Shown: piece after piece, positions 4,204-43,845 of the stretch
How positions within the stretch are numbered: the stretch's first letter is position 1
Layout of the letters: every line of letters begins with the position of its first letter
Sequence record: NC_054895.1
Length of the DNA: 48,466 nucleotides
Direction: 5' to 3' (one strand)
Source: Escherichia phage vB_Eco_SLUR29
Made by a program: the position numbers and the translations under genes
Notes under the pieces: model-generated
Databases searched by the model: none
Seen by the model: only the letters and a program-made list of their open reading frames with translations
What the model was told of the DNA's origin: nothing

Positions 4204-4222
4204 TTTTAACAAAAAGTGCTAT
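4204..4222 (-). promoter_or_regulatory. conserved early element, minus-strand copy, with stem-loop AGGGCA/TGCCCT
   Basis: reverse complement exact 19-mer followed by hairpin with TGGTAAAGT in loop; precedes gene 3934..4146. Confidence 0.55.
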
Positions 4223-4512
4223 TAGCTCAGATAGTAAAGCTCATCGCGCGCGAAGTCGTCAAAATCTCGCTGTGTCAGCGGTCGATCCTCTCGCGCCGCT
4301 TCCTCTATCATATTGATCAAAAAATCGTTCATCGCCCCTAGTCCGCCATCCGGCATATAGCAAGCTGCGAAAGCTCGCGCCCATGAACGAGCATTTTTGA
4401 ATCCGGCGCGCTTCATTGTGACTGGCGAGTGTTTAGAGTCGTTCCACTTGTTACACTGAGCGATGTTTTCAAAAGCGTTAACCAGTAGTTTGCGGTAAGT
4501 TTTGTTTGCCAT
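4222..4512 (-). CDS. hypothetical protein (96 aa)
   Basis: ORF with AAGGGG SD. Confidence 0.55.
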   Translation of the reverse strand: MANKTYRKLLVNAFENIAQCNKWNDSKHSPVTMKRAGFKNARSWARAFAACYMPDGGLGAMNDFLINMIEEAAREDRPLTQRDFDDFARDELYYLS

Positions 4513-6817: not shown

Positions 6818-6836
6818 TTTTTGCAAAAAGTGCTAT
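6818..6836 (-). promoter_or_regulatory. degenerate minus-strand copy of 19-mer element with stem-loop GGGCTT/AAGCCC
   Basis: reverse complement ATAGCACTTTTTGCAAAAA; TATAGT in loop; ACAACAAACGAGGA leader; contains TAG stop of lipoprotein gene. Confidence 0.5.
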
Positions 6837-7105
6837 TTTGTCTCGACGGTCATATGTTCTGTCTTCGTGCCTTTGCCATTGCTTTTCGACACTTCCCAGC
6901 TAGTAGCGCCCTTGCAGTTGGTGAAGTAAACAGTGCGATCGTCATAGAATCGGTAAACGGTGCAACCGTCAGCGGTGAATAGCTCCCTTACGCTGTAGTC
7001 ATCGCCAGGGTTAGCCATCTGCACATTGCCAACATGCGCGCCATCTTCTTTGCATCCGGTCAGGAATGCCATTGCCGCCAAAACGCTGATTAATGCCTTT
7101 TTCAT
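6833..7105 (-). CDS. lipoprotein (lipobox LTGC)
   Basis: signal peptide plus LTGC lipobox; 90 aa; AGAGGA SD. Confidence 0.55.
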   Translation of the reverse strand: MKKALISVLAAMAFLTGCKEDGAHVGNVQMANPGDDYSVRELFTADGCTVYRFYDDRTVYFTNCKGATSWEVSKSNGKGTKTEHMTVETK

Positions 7106-7569
7106 TGCTCTTCCTCTTTGATGATTTCGCGGATCATATCCTGGTAGCGGCTTACGCCCTCACAAGCTCCAGCCAGTTTATCCCCTTCCAGGTCAACGAT
7201 ATTCGGGATTGCTGCCAGTATGCGATCGGCAAACTTTTTGATCGCCCTTGCCTTGATGGCTGGCAATTCTTCGGGTGTGATGATTTTCCTTTTCGATTCG
7301 CGGACCATGCGGAAAACGTAAAATTTATCATCTTCCGTTTCCTCTACCTTGATGCTTACCCGACCTGCGGCCATTACTTCTGGAACGCGGTTGATAATGG
7401 TCCGGCTGTAGGATGAACTGCGCGTGATCTTGTAGCAGTCGTCACCGCTTAACATTCCGGCCAGGTCAATTAGTGACATTTTATACTCTTCAATATCGCC
7501 ACTAGCCAGGCGGCGACCAAGCTCGCGAAGCCAATCGCAATAGTCCTTAGTGGTCTTCTGTTCCATTTC
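7102..7569 (-). CDS. hypothetical protein (155 aa, MEQKTTKDY...)
   Basis: first gene of leftward early operon; GGAGGAAAGG SD; consensus sigma70 promoter immediately upstream. Confidence 0.55.
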   Translation of the reverse strand, partial: EMEQKTTKDYCDWLRELGRRLASGDIEEYKMSLIDLAGMLSGDDCYKITRSSSYSRTIINRVPEVMAAGRVSIKVEETEDDKFYVFRMVRESKRKIITPEELPAIKARAIKKFADRILAAIPNIVDLEGDKLAGACEGVSRYQDMIREIIKEEEQ

Positions 7570-7597
7570 CTTTCCTCCAGTTGTTGACTGTTGGCGC

Positions 7598-7625
7598 ATT
7601 ATAAAAGCTATTTGGTGCGTGTCAA
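7598..7625 (-). promoter_or_regulatory. sigma70-type promoter (TTGACA-16-TATAAT) for leftward early operon
   Basis: minus-strand TTGACA at 7625..7620 and TATAAT at 7603..7598 with 16-nt spacer, about 30 nt upstream of ATG 7569. Confidence 0.6.
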
Positions 7626-8157: not shown

Positions 8158-8180
8158 GCAATCCTGGCGATAACCGTCAA

Positions 8181-8199
8181 ATAGCACTTTTTGTTAAAA
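8181..8199 (+). promoter_or_regulatory. conserved 19-bp early element ATAGCACTTTTTGTTAAAA, copy 1 (PeSL-like)
   Basis: exact 19-mer; -10-like TACATT 22 nt after TTGTTA; CATCGAAACGAAC leader; precedes gene 8265. Confidence 0.6.
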
Positions 8200-9608: not shown

Positions 9609-9872
9609 ATGAAAATTAATGCACCTATTCCAGTTAAGCGCAAAGCACGTTTGCTCAATAACGGGTGTTACGCCCTGCGGCCTGCATTTAAGGATCGCAC
9701 ATTTCCGGTTATCGTTAACGTGTCTCACGTAAGCCGTAGCGGAAACCTGGTATTCGTTAAAGGTGAAGATCTGGCGGCGCTTGGATTCTATGGCGGTGCT
9801 CACGGCGAACCGCTCGGATTCTGGCTTGTAGATCCGTTAACTGGAGAGCGTGAAATCGAATTTCTGGACTAA
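9609..9872 (+). CDS. hypothetical protein (87 aa)
   Basis: strong SD TAAGGAG; TAA stop abuts next 19-mer element. Confidence 0.6.
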   Translation: MKINAPIPVKRKARLLNNGCYALRPAFKDRTFPVIVNVSHVSRSGNLVFVKGEDLAALGFYGGAHGEPLGFWLVDPLTGEREIEFLD

Positions 9873-9891
9873 ATAGCACTTTTTGTTAAAA
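9873..9891 (+). promoter_or_regulatory. conserved 19-bp early element, copy 3, with stem-loop GATGCGCT/AGCGCATC
   Basis: exact 19-mer; TGGTATAGT in loop 22 nt after TTGTTA. Confidence 0.6.
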
Positions 9892-11358: not shown

Positions 11359-12075
11359 ATGACGATGTATAAAGGTTTAATATTCTCCCTATTTGATGGA
11401 TCTGGTAAAGCCGTTAAAGATTGGGCTGATAATGGCTATAAGTGCATTTGCTTTAATGCTGACGGCGGCGATCACGGTGATTACCAGTCAGTGCGCATAC
11501 AGCATGAGAATATCGAATACGTTAACGTCTGGATTGATGAAAGATTTTACCACCGCGCGCGCTGGGAGGAATGGGGCATTCCTGACTTTATTATGGCATT
11601 TCCGCCGTGCACTGACCTTGCAAATAGCGGATCTCGCCATTGGGCCAAAAAACGCCTTGAGAATCCATCTTTCCAGGATGAGGCCGCCGACACTTGCAGG
11701 ATCGCGGCTGATATAGCTGATTATTTCGGTGTTCCTTACATGATCGAAAATCCGGTTGGCAAGTTGTCAACGTTATGGCGAAAGCCTGATTATACGTTCC
11801 ATCCGTGCGATTACGCTGGCTATCTGCCGGAAGATGATAAACATCCCGACTTCCCTGATATTATTCCGGCGCGGGATCGCTATTTTAAGAAAACATGCCT
11901 CTGGACTGGCAACGGCTTTGTTATTCCTCCACGCGCTTTAATCCTGCCGAAAGAGAAAGACAAAGATAATCCAGGCTGGGCCAAAACTGGCGGCAAGTCA
12001 TCGCGCACAAAGATGATCCGCTCCCTCACTCCGCGCGGCTTTGCTCGCGCCGTCTTTGAGTCAAACTCAAAATAG
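11359..12075 (+). CDS. DNA (cytosine-5)-methyltransferase-like
   Basis: motif I FSLFDGSG, PPC catalytic-Cys motif (FPPCTDL), ENP/ENV-like motif (MIENPVGK); TAG stop lies inside next 19-mer element. Confidence 0.65.
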   Translation: MTMYKGLIFSLFDGSGKAVKDWADNGYKCICFNADGGDHGDYQSVRIQHENIEYVNVWIDERFYHRARWEEWGIPDFIMAFPPCTDLANSGSRHWAKKRLENPSFQDEAADTCRIAADIADYFGVPYMIENPVGKLSTLWRKPDYTFHPCDYAGYLPEDDKHPDFPDIIPARDRYFKKTCLWTGNGFVIPPRALILPKEKDKDNPGWAKTGGKSSRTKMIRSLTPRGFARAVFESNSK

Positions 12076-12090
12076 CACTTTTTGTTAAAA
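12072..12090 (+). promoter_or_regulatory. conserved 19-bp early element, copy 4, with stem-loop GCCAGGT/ACCTGGC
   Basis: exact 19-mer containing stop codon of upstream gene; TGGCATAAT 22 nt after TTGTTA. Confidence 0.6.
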
Positions 12091-14790: not shown

Positions 14791-14911
14791 GGATTTTATT
14801 CATGCTTTACTTACGCTACTTTATTCAGATATGCGCGCTTTTAGCACCACTGAACATGTTTTATGCAATGATGATGGTGTATTACTGGTTACGGTAAAGC
14901 GTATGGAATAG
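14717..14911 (+). CDS. possible overlapping small ORF (64 aa)
   Basis: GGGGAGA SD 6 nt before ATG; TAG stop is the TAG of the next 19-mer element, as for other cassette-terminal genes. Confidence 0.3.
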   Translation: MMNCSRQKLIDKILKHCAVNSISHEDFIHALLTLLYSDMRAFSTTEHVLCNDDGVLLVTVKRME

Positions 14912-14926
14912 CATTTTTTGTTAAAA
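14908..14926 (+). promoter_or_regulatory. conserved early element, copy 6 (ATAGCATTTTTTGTTAAAA), stem-loop CCCGGC/GTCGGG
   Basis: near-exact 19-mer; TATATT after hairpin; CATCGAAACGAAAC leader; inverted duplicate of copy at 18151..18169. Confidence 0.6.
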
Positions 14927-14988
14927 CGCCCGGCCTAGTGTCGGGTATATTTGTTTCATCGAAACGAAACAACCAAAAAGGAAAAATT

Positions 14989-15213
14989 ATGTCCAGCAAG
15001 TTTTTAGTAGTTCGCGTATACAATCATGCAAATGGATCTTCTTCTGAAATCCCGACAGTTTACGATAAGGATTCAGGCTGGAGTGAGCAATCGGCGGTTG
15101 AAAATGAGCGCAAGATTGCAGGACTATACGGCGACACTTGCAGCATTGAAGTAAGGAAGTACGACGAATCGAACAAGCCAACAAACGAAAGCCATATGTG
15201 GCCCGACGCATAA
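14989..15213 (+). CDS. hypothetical protein (74 aa, MSSKFLVV...)
   Basis: ATG at 14989 after A-rich leader. Confidence 0.5.
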   Translation: MSSKFLVVRVYNHANGSSSEIPTVYDKDSGWSEQSAVENERKIAGLYGDTCSIEVRKYDESNKPTNESHMWPDA

Positions 15214-15245
15214 AAATAAAGGAGGCGTTAAGCCTCCTTTTTCTT
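15214..15245. terminator. bidirectional intrinsic terminator between convergent operons
   Basis: hairpin GGAGGC-GTTA-AGCCTCC flanked by A-run and T-run. Confidence 0.6.
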
Positions 15246-15623
15246 TTCTATCCAGTAAAGACAAATCAGCACAAGAAACACAACCACGCATATGATTACT
15301 GGATCGTACCATCTCCCGTTATTACGCTGCACGACCTGAATTTTGTCTGCCTTGATGGTATTGGCCTGAATGGTTGATGTTGTGAAATCCTTCTTGCTGG
15401 ACGTGTCCACCTTGTCAACCGCAGATTCCTTTATTGTGGTTTCCTGTTTTGTGCTGGCGTCCTGCCTTGCTGTAATGCCAACTGTCTGCTTCACGTTCTC
15501 CGCGCCAGCCTGCGCTGTGATTTCCGGCTTACTGCCGATTAATCCGGTCAGTGGCGTAACGCTTGAACATCCAGACAAGATCACCGCCATTGCGATTGGT
15601 GTAAGTAAAAATTTCTTCATCAT
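15228..15623 (-). CDS. unimolecular spanin-like lysis protein
   Basis: N-terminal lipoprotein signal (LSGCSS) plus C-terminal TM helix ([16 protein letters not shown]); last gene of lysis cassette. Confidence 0.55.
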
Positions 15624-16111
15624 TTAAGATCCATTGTGCAATATTTGTATTCGACCTTGCGCCTGTTAAGCAAGCCTTTAGACTTCTCTCGCTTTCCTGT
15701 TTTTGGGTTATGGTAATAAGTCCAACGATAAAGCTGATCGCAAGCCTCGTTTAATTTCCCCTGGTTGATGAGTTTCAGCATTGTTGAATTTCTGAAAGCT
15801 CCCACACCTGCATTATAAGTGAATGAGTACATGGCTGCACGCATACTATCGGGAATGTCAACCTTAACTTGCTTGTCAACTTCTTTTTTAGCAACCTGGA
15901 TATGTTTAGCCAACAAAGCATCACACTCTTTTTTAGTGTACGTTTTCCCCAGGATAACATCGGGTCCGGTGATTCCTGCGCAAACCGTCCATACTCCCGC
16001 AATATCTTTGTATGGCTTGTATCTTACCCCTTCGATCTCTTCAAGAAGTGGAGAAGTCAAGGCAACCGCAACGCCAAAGGCCGCCGCCGCTACCCTGTTC
16101 TTTATGCTCAT
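15620..16111 (-). CDS. SAR endolysin (GH24 lysozyme)
   Basis: Gly/Ala-rich N-terminal signal-anchor-release segment; catalytic E-8-D-5-T triad ([16 protein letters not shown]). Confidence 0.8.
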
Positions 16112-16326
16112 TACTTGCCCCTGATCTCAATAGCTTTTTGAATATCACCTTTTTCGATCGCCTCGTGGAATTTTTTACTATCACGCCAGCGAAGGTAAGC
16201 GCCCCACGCACCGAATGCAGCCATTAAAACAAAACTGGCAATAGCAATGGTTAACTGCCCTGTAGCGGCGCTTGCGATAGATGAACCGCCAGATCCGGCG
16301 GTAGCTGCGTTAATAAAATCTTTCAT
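16111..16326 (-). CDS. holin (pinholin-like, two TMDs)
   Basis: 71-aa protein with two hydrophobic segments and charged C-terminus; ATGA coupling to endolysin. Confidence 0.6.
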
Positions 16327-16471
16327 TTTTATTCTCCATATTAATTAAAGTCAATATATTGACCGCATGATAAACGCACATGGTAAAAAATTAAACAAAA
16401 AAAAGAGGCGACAAACGCCGCCCCCTTGCAAGTTTTTGATTTAATTTGTCATTGATTTAAATAAAAATTCA

Positions 16472-18093: not shown

Positions 18094-18150
18094 TTTTATT
18101 TCCTCATGTTTGTTTCGTTGAAATAATTATGCCCGACACTAGGCCGGGCG

Positions 18151-18169
18151 TTTTAACAAAAAGTGCTAT
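18151..18169 (-). promoter_or_regulatory. conserved early element, minus-strand copy; inverted duplicate of copy 6
   Basis: reverse complement is ATAGCACTTTTTGTTAAAA followed by identical hairpin CGCCCGGCCTAGTGTCGGG and CATAAT; contains TAG stop of gene 18166..18405. Confidence 0.6.
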
Positions 18170-18405
18170 TTGATCGCTGAATCGTAAAATTCTTGCAGGT
18201 CTTTAGCAATTATTTCATGCCATTTTTCAAGAGGATGTTTTCTAGTTTCCTCAAAACTCATATCCAGGCAGCCGGAAAACTCCCACAAATCGCAATCAAT
18301 ATATGGCTTAACGAACGAATTTTTTTCCATACAGTCGCACACCATAGCGCGATATAAAAGAAATTCGCCATCCTCATTAAGTAAAACGCTTCTCTCTTTT
18401 TCCAT
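18166..18405 (-). CDS. hypothetical protein (80 aa, MEKERSVLL...)
   Basis: GGAG SD; immediately downstream of Dam gene. Confidence 0.45.
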   Translation of the reverse strand: MEKERSVLLNEDGEFLLYRAMVCDCMEKNSFVKPYIDCDLWEFSGCLDMSFEETRKHPLEKWHEIIAKDLQEFYDSAIK

Positions 18406-19199: not shown

Positions 19200-19218
19200 T
19201 TTTAACAAAAAGTGCTAT
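19200..19218 (-). promoter_or_regulatory. conserved early element, minus-strand copy, with stem-loop GGCGC/GCGCC
   Basis: reverse complement exact 19-mer followed by hairpin and CATAAT; contains TAG stop of 19215..19634; precedes Dam. Confidence 0.6.
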
Positions 19219-19634
19219 TTAAGCATGTATTCAATAGCCAACTTAAACTGATTAAATCCGTAGGCGACCGCAGCGAATCCTCCTAAGCTGCGAACTCGAC
19301 GCAAAAAAGCCCTTTGTTCATCGCTGACTGGTGATGCTTTACCATTGCCTGATTTATTCACTCGTTTGATCTCAATCGCTGCAAATGGGTATTTTCCGTT
19401 TAAACCAATCAGGATGATGAAATCGCTTACACCCTTAACCAAGCCGGACTGCTGATCAATCATCGCCGTTGCTTTAGACTTCTCATTCTCGTTTACCGTA
19501 TGCCACGCCAGCAAGTAAGGATGAGTATAAGTCAACCACTGAAAGCTATCTATCTGGTGATTAACTTCCTTTCTAGTGTCGGTTGGATCTCTTTCGTAAA
19601 ACTCAAGATAATCTCCTTTATCAGTTATAGCCAT
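19215..19634 (-). CDS. VRR-NUC-like PD-(D/E)xK nuclease
   Basis: 139 aa; D...E.K signature (GVSDFIIL...AIEIK); adjacent to helicase as is common for VRR-NUC. Confidence 0.55.
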   Translation of the reverse strand: MAITDKGDYLEFYERDPTDTRKEVNHQIDSFQWLTYTHPYLLAWHTVNENEKSKATAMIDQQSGLVKGVSDFIILIGLNGKYPFAAIEIKRVNKSGNGKASPVSDEQRAFLRRVRSLGGFAAVAYGFNQFKLAIEYMLK

Positions 19635-21688: not shown

Positions 21689-21707
21689 TTTTAACAAAAA
21701 ATGCTAT
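21689..21707 (-). promoter_or_regulatory. conserved early element, minus-strand copy driving helicase operon
   Basis: reverse complement ATAGCATTTTTTGTTAAAA; TATTAT 22 nt after TTGTTA; about 58 nt upstream of helicase ATG. Confidence 0.55.
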
Positions 21708-21718
21708 GAGGTGACTAG

Positions 21719-22195
21719 ATGAAAGATGCACGAATTGCGGTGTCTACGGGTGAGATCGACAAGCGCACTATTAACGGTAACAACGGAACGCGACGAGGTA
21801 AAGACAAAAAGCCACGAAAACACCGAACCGGATTTCTTATCCTGCGAGATGAGGTAAAAGCAAGCCTGAAATCTCGCTTGGATATTCTGATCGAGTATTA
21901 TGGCGGTGTTCCTGCTATGGCTCGACGTCTACGCGTATCTCAGCAAGTCGTTAACCAATGGCGAAAGCGTGGTATGATTTCAGCCGCTGGAGCACAAAAG
22001 GTGCATAACGACTACAAATATAATGGATGCAAAGGATACCGCGCATCATTTTGTCGTCCAGATCTGCGGTTTGATTCTAACGGTAAGCCTCTTACTACCC
22101 GTTGCGACAAATACGAGATGTTGCGCGTAGTCAAAAATTCAGACTACGAACCAGGCGGACGATTCTACAAAGGTGATAACAGCACAAATAGCTAA
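21719..22195 (+). CDS. HTH DNA-binding protein (Cro/YdaS-like)
   Basis: HTH-like GGVPAMARRLRVSQQVVNQWRKRG; GAGG SD. Confidence 0.6.
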   Translation: MKDARIAVSTGEIDKRTINGNNGTRRGKDKKPRKHRTGFLILRDEVKASLKSRLDILIEYYGGVPAMARRLRVSQQVVNQWRKRGMISAAGAQKVHNDYKYNGCKGYRASFCRPDLRFDSNGKPLTTRCDKYEMLRVVKNSDYEPGGRFYKGDNSTNS

Positions 22196-29356: not shown

Positions 29357-29584
29357 ATGAAAAAGTTAATTGCCGTTTTAATCGCAGCCGTTGCGCTGAC
29401 TGGTTGCGCAAATATGCCTAAACGTGAATGCACGGCTATTTATGAAAATAGCGGAATGCAGTATTCAGTTGCTATCTTTGGGGCAAAACGAGTTGGCGAC
29501 CGCACTCTTGTCAAGGCTGGCTATCCATTTAATTTTCAGTGGGTGAGCATTGATAACTTTAAAAACGCTGATTGCAGTCTGTAA
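29357..29584 (+). CDS. small lipoprotein (75 aa), candidate superinfection-exclusion (Cor-like) protein
   Basis: signal peptide plus LTGC lipobox; isolated gene next to tail module. Confidence 0.5.
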   Translation: MKKLIAVLIAAVALTGCANMPKRECTAIYENSGMQYSVAIFGAKRVGDRTLVKAGYPFNFQWVSIDNFKNADCSL

Positions 29585-40062: not shown

Positions 40063-40076
40063 CTTAAGATCTCCTT

Positions 40077-40095
40077 ATAGCACTTTTTGTTAAAA
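40077..40095 (+). promoter_or_regulatory. exact 19-mer copy in plus orientation inside leftward structural operon
   Basis: ATAGCACTTTTTGTTAAAA; TAGATT 22 nt after TTGTTA; about 45 nt before terminator at 40141; its reverse complement abuts SD of G gene. Confidence 0.45.
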
Positions 40096-43820: not shown

Positions 43821-43826
43821 TAGATG

Positions 43827-43845
43827 ATAGCACTTTTTGTTAAAC
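43827..43845 (+). promoter_or_regulatory. 19-mer copy (ATAGCACTTTTTGTTAAAC) in plus orientation inside structural operon
   Basis: 18/19 match; TATTAG 22 nt after TTGTTA. Confidence 0.4.

Follow-up and report, generated by a model that had tools for sequence, protein, structure and literature searches.

A probable T1-like pinholin, SAR endolysin and unimolecular spanin lysis cassette in a Warwickvirus genome

Gene layout and transcription signals at the locus

The analysed DNA (Escherichia phage vB_Eco_SLUR29, NC_054895.1; 48,466 nucleotides, the whole stretch being referred to as the window) represents nearly all of the genome of a Warwickvirus (Drexlerviridae, Tempevirinae), with 97-99% identity to phage tunus. 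The two halves of the window were covered to 97% and 95% by tunus-like phages, at 97-98.5% identity, and the window extends from the gene for the terminase round to that for the portal. Since it is a near-complete genome, the statements made on the rest of the window are approximately statements on the whole genome. An earlier note on this DNA had placed a lysis cassette at 15228-16326, and this location was confirmed: the interval is exactly filled by three consecutive minus-strand ORFs, all of which have family matches. They were assigned, in the order of transcription, as a holin gene of the T1 gp13 type (16111-16326, 71 aa; phrog_2877), a SAR endolysin gene encoding a GH24/T4-lysozyme-type muramidase (15620-16111, 163 aa; PF00959 and phrog_7) and a unimolecular spanin (u-spanin) gene (15228-15623, 131 aa; phrog_1804 and homology to T1 gp11). 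The holin stop overlaps the endolysin start, with one base in common (TAATG), and the endolysin and u-spanin genes have four bases in common (ATGA), where the u-spanin gene overlaps the endolysin stop. The u-spanin gene is the last of the cassette, with a terminator after it. Identity over the cassette and flanks was 99.4% to Escherichia phage tunus and 97.6-99% to approximately 60 other phage records, in which the corresponding genes are annotated as holin, endolysin and 'Rz-like' or 'unimolecular' spanin.

A Shine-Dalgarno motif (GGAG, 16334-16337, minus strand) was read from the sequence 7 nt upstream of the holin ATG. A rho-independent terminator (16402-16427, minus strand) lies after the upstream exonuclease gene, approximately 75 nt upstream of the holin ATG, and its position (approximately 70-85 nt before the holin gene) is kept in the window, in T1 and in four other diverged relatives; the tunus row was left out of this comparison. 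At the opposite end of the cassette, a bidirectional rho-independent terminator (15218-15240; AAAGGAGGC-loop-GCCTCCTTT) overlaps the u-spanin stop codon, and this symmetric element closes both the cassette and the convergent plus-strand gene at 14989-15213. The T1 record also contains terminators just upstream of the pinholin gene and overlapping the 3' end of gene 11. A sigma-70 scan of the region between the upstream terminator and the holin gene revealed no convincing promoter, and no 21-nt repeat box of the kind found in the flanking repeats discussed below was present between the terminator at 16402-16427 and the holin gene. The timing of the cassette could be set by terminator read-through or antitermination instead of by a promoter of its own. 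The sigma-70 match TTGACT-18-AAAAAT at 16354-16325 was rejected as a cassette promoter, as it would start transcription inside the gene. A weak TTTAAT-17-TATCAT candidate was additionally noticed by eye, without support from the sigma-70 scan.

Properties of the three predicted lysis proteins

The product of the first gene matched phrog_2877 ('holin') over 71 of 71 positions (E=3.8e-32), shared 55% identity with T1 gp13 and was 100% identical to the annotated holins of several other phages. No Pfam holin family was found above threshold, the sole Pfam match being the sub-threshold DUF3262, and NCBIfam yielded nothing further above its cut-offs. The gene has a single start codon, with neither a second in-frame start nor an in-frame upstream start, and without a dual-start motif, in contrast to TLS-type holins, for which a dual start is possible (M1...M7). 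Residues 4-45 constitute a 42-residue charge-free stretch, and the C-terminal tail is basic (net +3). A clear transmembrane domain (TMD) with a conserved FGxxG motif was assigned to residues 25-45 (KD 1.83, approximate dGapp about 0); here and below, the insertion energies are approximate. The N-terminal segment 4-23 consists of 80% G/A/S/T, has a KD of approximately 0.5-0.65 and an approximate dGapp of about +7.2 to +7.8 kcal/mol, and a G23-Q24 turn lies between this segment and the TMD. The charge-free stretch, with an invariant GG and a G-Q/E turn, was kept in all six relatives. On the same scale, S21 68 of phage 21 gave +6.2 to +6.4 for TMD1 and approximately 0-1 for TMD2; as the insertion energies are similar, the hydropathy profiles of the two holins are alike. 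TMD1 of S21 68 is reportedly established by experiment as a SAR-type TMD. Pinholins of the S21 68 type (class II) are characterised by two TMDs (N-in, C-in), the first of them SAR-like, by small holes of about 2 nm that proteins cannot pass, and by a dual-start antiholin. The BLASTP comparison of the holin with S21 68 gave no alignment at E<=100. The holin is genetically paired with the SAR endolysin through the overlap of its stop with the endolysin start, and it is reasonable to call it 'pinholin-like', as a functional reading that would derive from the SAR partner and the hydropathy, not from homology to S21. The N-terminal segment of the holin of this phage is slightly less hydrophobic than S21 TMD1.

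The endolysin matched PF00959 (Phage_lysozyme) with E=3.6e-39 and phrog_7 with E=3e-55, and was 66% identical to T1 gp12, which is annotated as 'SAR endolysin'. The closest solved structures were PDB 3HDE/3HDF (E=5e-47), entitled just 'Lysozyme', which we take to be the phage 21 SAR endolysin (R21); the alignment begins at residue 2 and includes the SAR segment. Both features previously proposed for this protein, the SAR N-terminus and the GH24 E-8-D-5-T triad, were recovered. The triad is E27-x8-D36-x5-T42, lies in the protein matched by PF00959, and its three residues E27, D36 and T42 are invariant in six relatives. The SAR segment corresponds to residues 7-23, which align with the SAR domain in 3HDE; these 17 residues are uncharged, contain 53% G/A/S/T and no Cys, and are preceded by K4/R6. 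Its KD of 2.0 and approximate dGapp of +2.1 kcal/mol indicate marginal insertion, which, together with the G/A/S/T-rich, uncharged composition, is as expected for a signal-anchor-release domain. The G/A/S/T-rich composition of the N-terminal segment is kept in kind across the relatives. Homology to R21 points to an R21-type SAR endolysin, the release of which would depend on the proton-motive force.

A u-spanin is defined by an N-terminal lipoylation signal together with a TMD at the C-terminus (Kongari et al. 2018, PMC6139136). The prototype is T1 gp11, which possesses the lipobox LSGC and complements lambda RzRz1 (PMC6139136), and which is labelled 'u-spanin' in the T1 GenBank record, with a citation of the functional study (PMID 30135120). 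In a PHROG profile search the product of the third gene matched phrog_1804 ('Rz-like spanin') with E=4.3e-46, and it shares 99% identity with genes that carry the annotation 'putative unimolecular spanin'. It aligned with T1 gp11 at 46% identity over 122 of 131 residues (E=5e-38) and thus passes the spanin family threshold of 40% identity over 40% of the length (PMC6139136) for the T1gp11 family. All but two members of that family are located in pinholin-SAR endolysin cassettes (PMC6139136).

The N-terminal signal, as read from the sequence, comprises a basic n-region, a hydrophobic h-region and the lipobox LSGC with Cys19; the lipobox of T1 gp11 is the same, and G18-C19 is invariant in eight homologues. 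The residues at +2 and +3 after the lipoyl Cys are Ser-Ser, so that the lipoprotein signal LSGCSS claimed earlier was recovered in full. In the other homologues with a correctly picked lipobox, the +2 residue is Ser or Ala (the Phc row was left out). In lipoproteins sorted to the outer membrane, the residue at +2 from the lipoyl Cys is not Asp. At the other end of the protein, the claimed C-terminal TM helix was found as a TMD at residues 108/109-125 (mean KD 3.3 for the hydrophobic stretch 109-125, approximate dGapp −5.2 kcal/mol) and as a helix at 108-130 (pLDDT 70-86) in an AF2 single-sequence model of overall pLDDT 56. The basic tail EKKKEA follows directly after the TMD, and a C-terminal TMD with a basic tail is present in eight of eight homologues. 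In the AF2 model only two helices, those of the signal peptide and of the TM segment, are resolved; residues 27-73 have pLDDT values below 50 and no secondary structure. The periplasmic domain comprises 88 residues and contains no Cys, and u-spanins are described as being without periplasmic cysteines (PMC6139136). Crude Chou-Fasman propensities, calculated on the alignment, gave a number of short segments prone to form strands, and no long helix, in this domain; for the T1gp11 family, a short helix followed by at least four beta strands has been reported (PMC6139136). The eight homologues, in which the lipobox, the C-terminal TMD and the Cys-free domain recur, come from Tunavirus, Tlsvirus, Webervirus, Eclunavirus, an Erwinia phage and two podophages, and across these groups the triad and the SAR segment of the endolysin are likewise kept. 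The claim of a T1 gp11-type unimolecular spanin is consistent with the 46% identity and with the presence of the lipobox, the +2 Ser, the Cys-free periplasmic domain and the C-terminal TMD with its basic tail, and the identification of the 15228-15623 product as a T1gp11-family u-spanin, with a predicted role in outer-membrane disruption, is supported. Direct homology to the T1 cassette upheld each of the holin, endolysin and u-spanin assignments. The features of the cassette are kept in six to eight diverged relatives, and the family E-values exclude chance resemblance.

Genomic context and alternative readings

In order to search for a second spanin system, lipoprotein signals were scanned for at every start codon, in six frames, over the whole window. 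Four loci were obtained: the u-spanin gene, its antisense, a Cor-type lipoprotein and a 90-aa lipoprotein without known function. The plus-strand 'lipobox' ORF at 15370-15627 runs antisense to the u-spanin gene, and the lipobox ORF at 29357-29584 was rejected as an o-spanin, as it encodes Cor. The 90-aa lipoprotein (6833-7105, minus strand) and the overlapping upstream 165-aa ORF (7102-7599, minus strand) were considered as an o-/i-spanin pair and rejected, because an N-terminal TMD is missing from the upstream protein and the only PHROGs matched by either protein are of unknown function. The six-frame lipobox scan and the PHROG matches therefore gave no two-component i-/o-spanin pair in the near-complete genome, and only one spanin is annotated in the relative tunus. 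The check for a separate i-spanin/o-spanin pair elsewhere, which had been suggested along with the u-spanin claim, leaves the u-spanin reading standing.

In Drexlerviridae lysis modules, a standalone SH3 (DUF7244) gene, placed between those for the exonuclease and the pinholin, is described as widespread but not universal (2026, PMC13164509). T1 orf14 matched PF23896 (DUF7244) with E=9e-29. No ORF flanking the cassette matched DUF7244 (PF23896), and no homologue of T1 orf14 was found by tblastn or phmmer in the whole window (best E at least 1). The gap between the exonuclease and holin genes measures 145 bp and contains no ORF. With no DUF7244 gene at the locus or elsewhere in the window, the genome carries the minimal three-gene module, lacking the SH3 accessory gene known in Tunavirus.

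The cassette lies within a 3.1-kb segment flanked by two 62-nt arms (14907-14968 and 18109-18170) that are 90% complementary. The left arm (plus strand), with the 21-nt repeat, a hairpin and the -10-like ATATTT, faces the plus-strand gene at 14989-15213. The right arm (minus strand), with the 21-nt repeat and a hairpin, heads the minus-strand unit of small ORFs and the exonuclease gene that precedes the cassette. Each arm contains the box AATAGCACTTTTTGTTAAAA, followed by a common hairpin and a -10-like hexamer, and the two copies converge, each standing at the head of the transcription unit on its own side. The window contains 15 copies of the box, versus 0.02 expected by chance, and phage tunus has 19. 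The box corresponds to the 21-nt intergenic repeat aaATAGCACnnnTTGnTAAAA known from TLS, T1 and Rtp, the function of which was left there as an open question. The flanking pair of inverted elements reported in the earlier note is real; it has no special relation to the cassette, the arms being 2 of 15 dispersed copies.

Several other readings of the locus were weighed. An inverted pair of such length and complementarity around the cassette might be taken for the ends of a mobile or invertible DNA segment that bears it. We regard this as scarcely credible, as the arms belong to a known dispersed repeat that is also abundant in tunus (19 copies), the genes around the cassette keep the same order and orientation in tunus, T1 and other relatives, and no recombinase gene lies next to the segment. 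The arms are context, not part of the lysis cassette, and they form no mobile or invertible unit. The third gene, in turn, might encode a Cor-like or other outer-membrane lipoprotein, involved for example in superinfection exclusion, instead of a spanin, and residues 2-81 of its product do show a weak match to phrog_1119 ('Cor superinfection exclusion protein', E=1.1e-5). The spanin PHROG match is, however, 40 orders of magnitude stronger, and the full-length identity of 46% to the experimentally characterised T1 gp11 opposes the Cor reading. Moreover, the product has a C-terminal TMD, which Cor does not have, and the real Cor gene is located elsewhere, at 29357-29584 (phrog_1119, E=1.8e-28). 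A Cor-type function of the third gene is accordingly exceedingly improbable. For the endolysin, conventional secretion as a lysozyme whose signal peptide is cleaved off was considered, given that the hydrophobic segment at the N-terminus is short, at 17 residues, and that its small residues A-V-A could resemble a signal peptidase site. This is very unlikely in view of the alignment, beginning at residue 2, to the SAR endolysin of phage 21, the crystal structure of which (3HDE) keeps the SAR domain, and of the 66% identity to T1 gp12, a SAR endolysin by annotation. The conservation of the G/A/S/T-rich segment in the relatives also speaks against a cleavable signal peptide, and constitutive export of an active muramidase would be expected to cause premature lysis and to make the adjacent holin pointless.

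On the topology of the holin, the published predictions conflict. The T1 GenBank note on gp13 reads '1 transmembrane domain, predicted N-out and C-in', whereas the TLS paper places both the T1 and the TLS holins among the two-TMS class II pinholins. Of the two TMDs claimed in the earlier note, the clear one (25-45) stood, whereas the second (4-23) was found only as a weak G/A/S-rich segment. The holin may thus have a single TMD (N-out, C-in), with residues 1-23 as a tail that stays in the periplasm, outside the bilayer. Only the segment 25-45 reaches TM-like hydrophobicity, the segment 4-23 being far weaker, and the curated T1 note agrees with one TMD. On the other hand, TMD1 of S21 68, which is of the SAR type, scores about the same as the segment 4-23, the 42-residue charge-free stretch with its GG and turn is conserved in all six relatives, and the TLS paper assigns two TMS to this kind of holin in both T1 and TLS. 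The single-TMD topology is a serious possibility that falls short of probable, and a holin with two TMDs is plausible. If the holin did have a single TMD, the cassette would still work in the same way overall.

Comparison with known systems and the predicted lysis pathway

The cassette resembles that of T1 in its gene order, in its overlapping junctions and in the sizes of its products (71/162/133 aa in T1 versus 71/163/131 aa here). The identities amount to 55% (gp13), 66% (gp12) and 46% (gp11), the LSGC lipobox is identical, and in both cassettes one terminator is found upstream of the holin gene and one overlaps the 3' end of the spanin gene. T1 differs in having an HNH endonuclease gene and the DUF7244/SH3 gene (orf14) between the exonuclease and holin genes, both of which are absent here. 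T1 belongs to the Tunavirinae, whereas the present phage belongs to the Tempevirinae, and the sequences have diverged. Among the Warwickvirus phages, tunus, tonn, tonijn and JLBYU07/19 share 97.6-99.4% nucleotide identity over the cassette and flanks, and in Warwickvirus/Tempevirinae relatives the genes are already annotated as holin, endolysin and (unimolecular) spanin. The same three-part interpretation is given for gp67-69 of TLS in the TLS paper.

The likeness to phage 21 extends to the endolysin, which is homologous to R21 (3HDE/3HDF), including the SAR segment and the E-D-T triad, and to the hydropathy of the holin, in which a very weak TMD1-like segment precedes a moderate TMD2, as in S21 68. 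In contrast, R21 has six extra residues, after its SAR domain and before the catalytic Glu, that are missing here, the holins are without sequence similarity, and the spanin of phage 21 is two-component (Rz/Rz1), whereas it is unimolecular here. As in lambda Rz/Rz1, the spanin comes last in the cassette and would join the outer membrane (lipoyl anchor) to the inner membrane (TMD) across the periplasm. Unlike Rz/Rz1, it is one polypeptide, with no coiled-coil i-spanin, no periplasmic cysteines and no sequence similarity to the lambda proteins. The u-spanins are thought to have originated independently of Rz/Rz1 in evolution (PMC6139136). It is conceivable, albeit rather unlikely, that the T1-type holins (phrog_2877) represent an independent, convergent pinholin family with a SAR-like TMD1 and that, at the same time, the cassette is timed by terminator read-through or antitermination. 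No experimental work on the convergent-pinholin idea or on read-through timing was found in the searched literature. The topology of T1-type holins and transcription behind the conserved terminator are family-wide questions, not specific to this window.

The gene order, coupling, homology and sequence features of the cassette, combined with the T1, phage 21 and lambda literature for the order of events, the proton-motive force dependence and the fusion step, suggest the following pathway. The endolysin would be exported by Sec and tethered to the inner membrane by its weakly hydrophobic SAR segment, in an enzymatically restrained state. Meanwhile, the 71-aa holin would build up in the inner membrane and trigger at a programmed time, upon which the proton-motive force would collapse. 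Depolarisation would release the SAR segment, and the muramidase could then refold and degrade the peptidoglycan. The u-spanin would receive its lipid at Cys19 and, with Ser at +2, be directed to the outer membrane, its C-terminal TM helix staying in the inner membrane. It would span the periplasm through the murein meshwork and stay caged until the murein is gone. Once freed, it would disrupt the outer membrane, most likely by fusion with the inner membrane (PMC6139136). We infer these functional steps from homology to other phages.

Taken as a whole, the locus very probably encodes a T1-like (Warwickvirus tunus-like) pinholin/SAR-endolysin/u-spanin lysis pathway, with the function of its proteins assigned by homology. 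No evidence contradicting the overall reading of the cassette was encountered. The cassette is the already described three-gene T1-type form and contains nothing new. Its significance is small, as this is a textbook cassette and many near-identical phages in GenBank already carry annotations for its genes. The value of the analysis lies in correct annotation: this genome uses a u-spanin, not Rz/Rz1, in the minimal three-gene form without the SH3 gene.

The endolysin junction and relatives of the u-spanin

Comparison of the endolysin with R21, the SAR endolysin of phage 21, revealed that six residues (TGPSGN in R21) are missing from the stretch joining the SAR segment to the catalytic Glu. The shortened junction comprises endolysin residues 21-27 (16030-16050) and places the membrane anchor nearer to the active site than in R21. 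The same short form was observed in the endolysins of T1 and other Drexlerviridae.

Homologues of the u-spanin, sharing 37-39% identity with it as well as the lipobox and the layout with a C-terminal TMD, were identified in two podophages, namely a Klebsiella phage whose taxonomy is not listed and a coliphage of the Slopekvirinae (L008 1504-1923 and L009 1480-1878 among the comparison loci). The large terminase gene directly precedes the homologue in both. In the Klebsiella podophage, the u-spanin gene precedes the holin and endolysin genes (5'), in contrast to its position as the last gene of the holin-endolysin-spanin cassette. No holin or endolysin was annotated within the stretch examined around the homologue of the Slopekvirinae coliphage. 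The T1-like cassette was also present in approximately 20 records titled 'Campylobacter phage' (host C. jejuni), e.g., MG065685 and MG065641, in which the u-spanin match reaches 86% identity over the first 108 residues. These records look like T1-like coliphage entries with a doubtful host label.

Other lipoprotein genes and the gene facing the u-spanin

Two further lipoprotein genes were found in the window. The first (29357-29584, plus strand) encodes a 75-aa protein with the lipobox LTGC that hits phrog_1119, the Cor family of superinfection-exclusion proteins, at E=1.8e-28. The second (6833-7105, minus strand) encodes a predicted lipoprotein of 90 aa, also with LTGC, which matches phrog_6360 (unknown function) and whose gene overlaps by ATGA that of a 165-aa protein (7102-7599, minus strand; phrog_4841, unknown function). 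The two were considered as a spanin pair and ruled out, the 165-aa protein being soluble, with no N-terminal TMD, and both proteins matching only PHROGs of unknown function.

For the small gene facing the u-spanin, two records of one phage species disagree on the strand: it is annotated on the minus strand in OR912983 (window 14987-15211) and on the plus strand in NC_049816 (window 14989-15213). Since the plus-strand product of 14989-15213 matches phrog_27210 (E=5e-34), the minus-strand call is probably wrong.

The 21-nt intergenic box

The 21-nt box AATAGCACTTTTTGTTAAAA, which is the TLS/T1 intergenic repeat, occurs in 15 copies in the window, against 0.02 expected. Examples were located on the minus strand at 4204-4223, 18151-18170, 19200-19219 and 21689-21708, and on the plus strand at 8180-8199, 9872-9891, 12071-12090, 40076-40095 and 43826-43845. 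Most of the 15 copies share the orientation of the downstream gene. In the TLS paper, every repeat copy was described as lying in the direction of transcription. In the window, the copies at 40076 and 43826 are antisense, among minus-strand late genes, and about 46 nt separate the latter from the start of the capsid gene. Read as its reverse complement, the box directly adjoins a Shine-Dalgarno sequence at 40076 and at 21689, in the latter case that of the plus-strand regulator gene at 21719.

Both arms of the inverted pair around the lysis cassette contain an identical GC-rich hairpin, GCCCGGCCTAGTGTCGGG (14928-14946, plus strand; 18131-18149, minus strand), situated between the 21-nt box and a -10-like hexamer and marked as terminator-like. 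The spacers differ at the other copies; thus, these two are more closely related to one another than either is to the remaining copies.

The region upstream of the holin

In T1, an HNH endonuclease gene is inserted upstream of the holin gene, whereas the window carries none there. A window-wide homologue search established that the vB_Eco_SLUR29 genome also lacks the DUF7244/SH3 gene (T1 orf14; L002 1497-1673, corresponding to window 16327-16471), recently proposed to be an accessory component of the lysis module. Within 16327-16471, a rho-independent terminator lies approximately 70-85 nt 5' of the holin start, a position kept in T1, Brooksby, VAC2, Phc and Snitter as well, and neither a repeat box nor a good sigma-70 promoter was found between it and the holin gene. 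Together, the kept terminator and this promoter-poor interval suggest that the lysis genes may be driven by read-through or by an unrecognised promoter.
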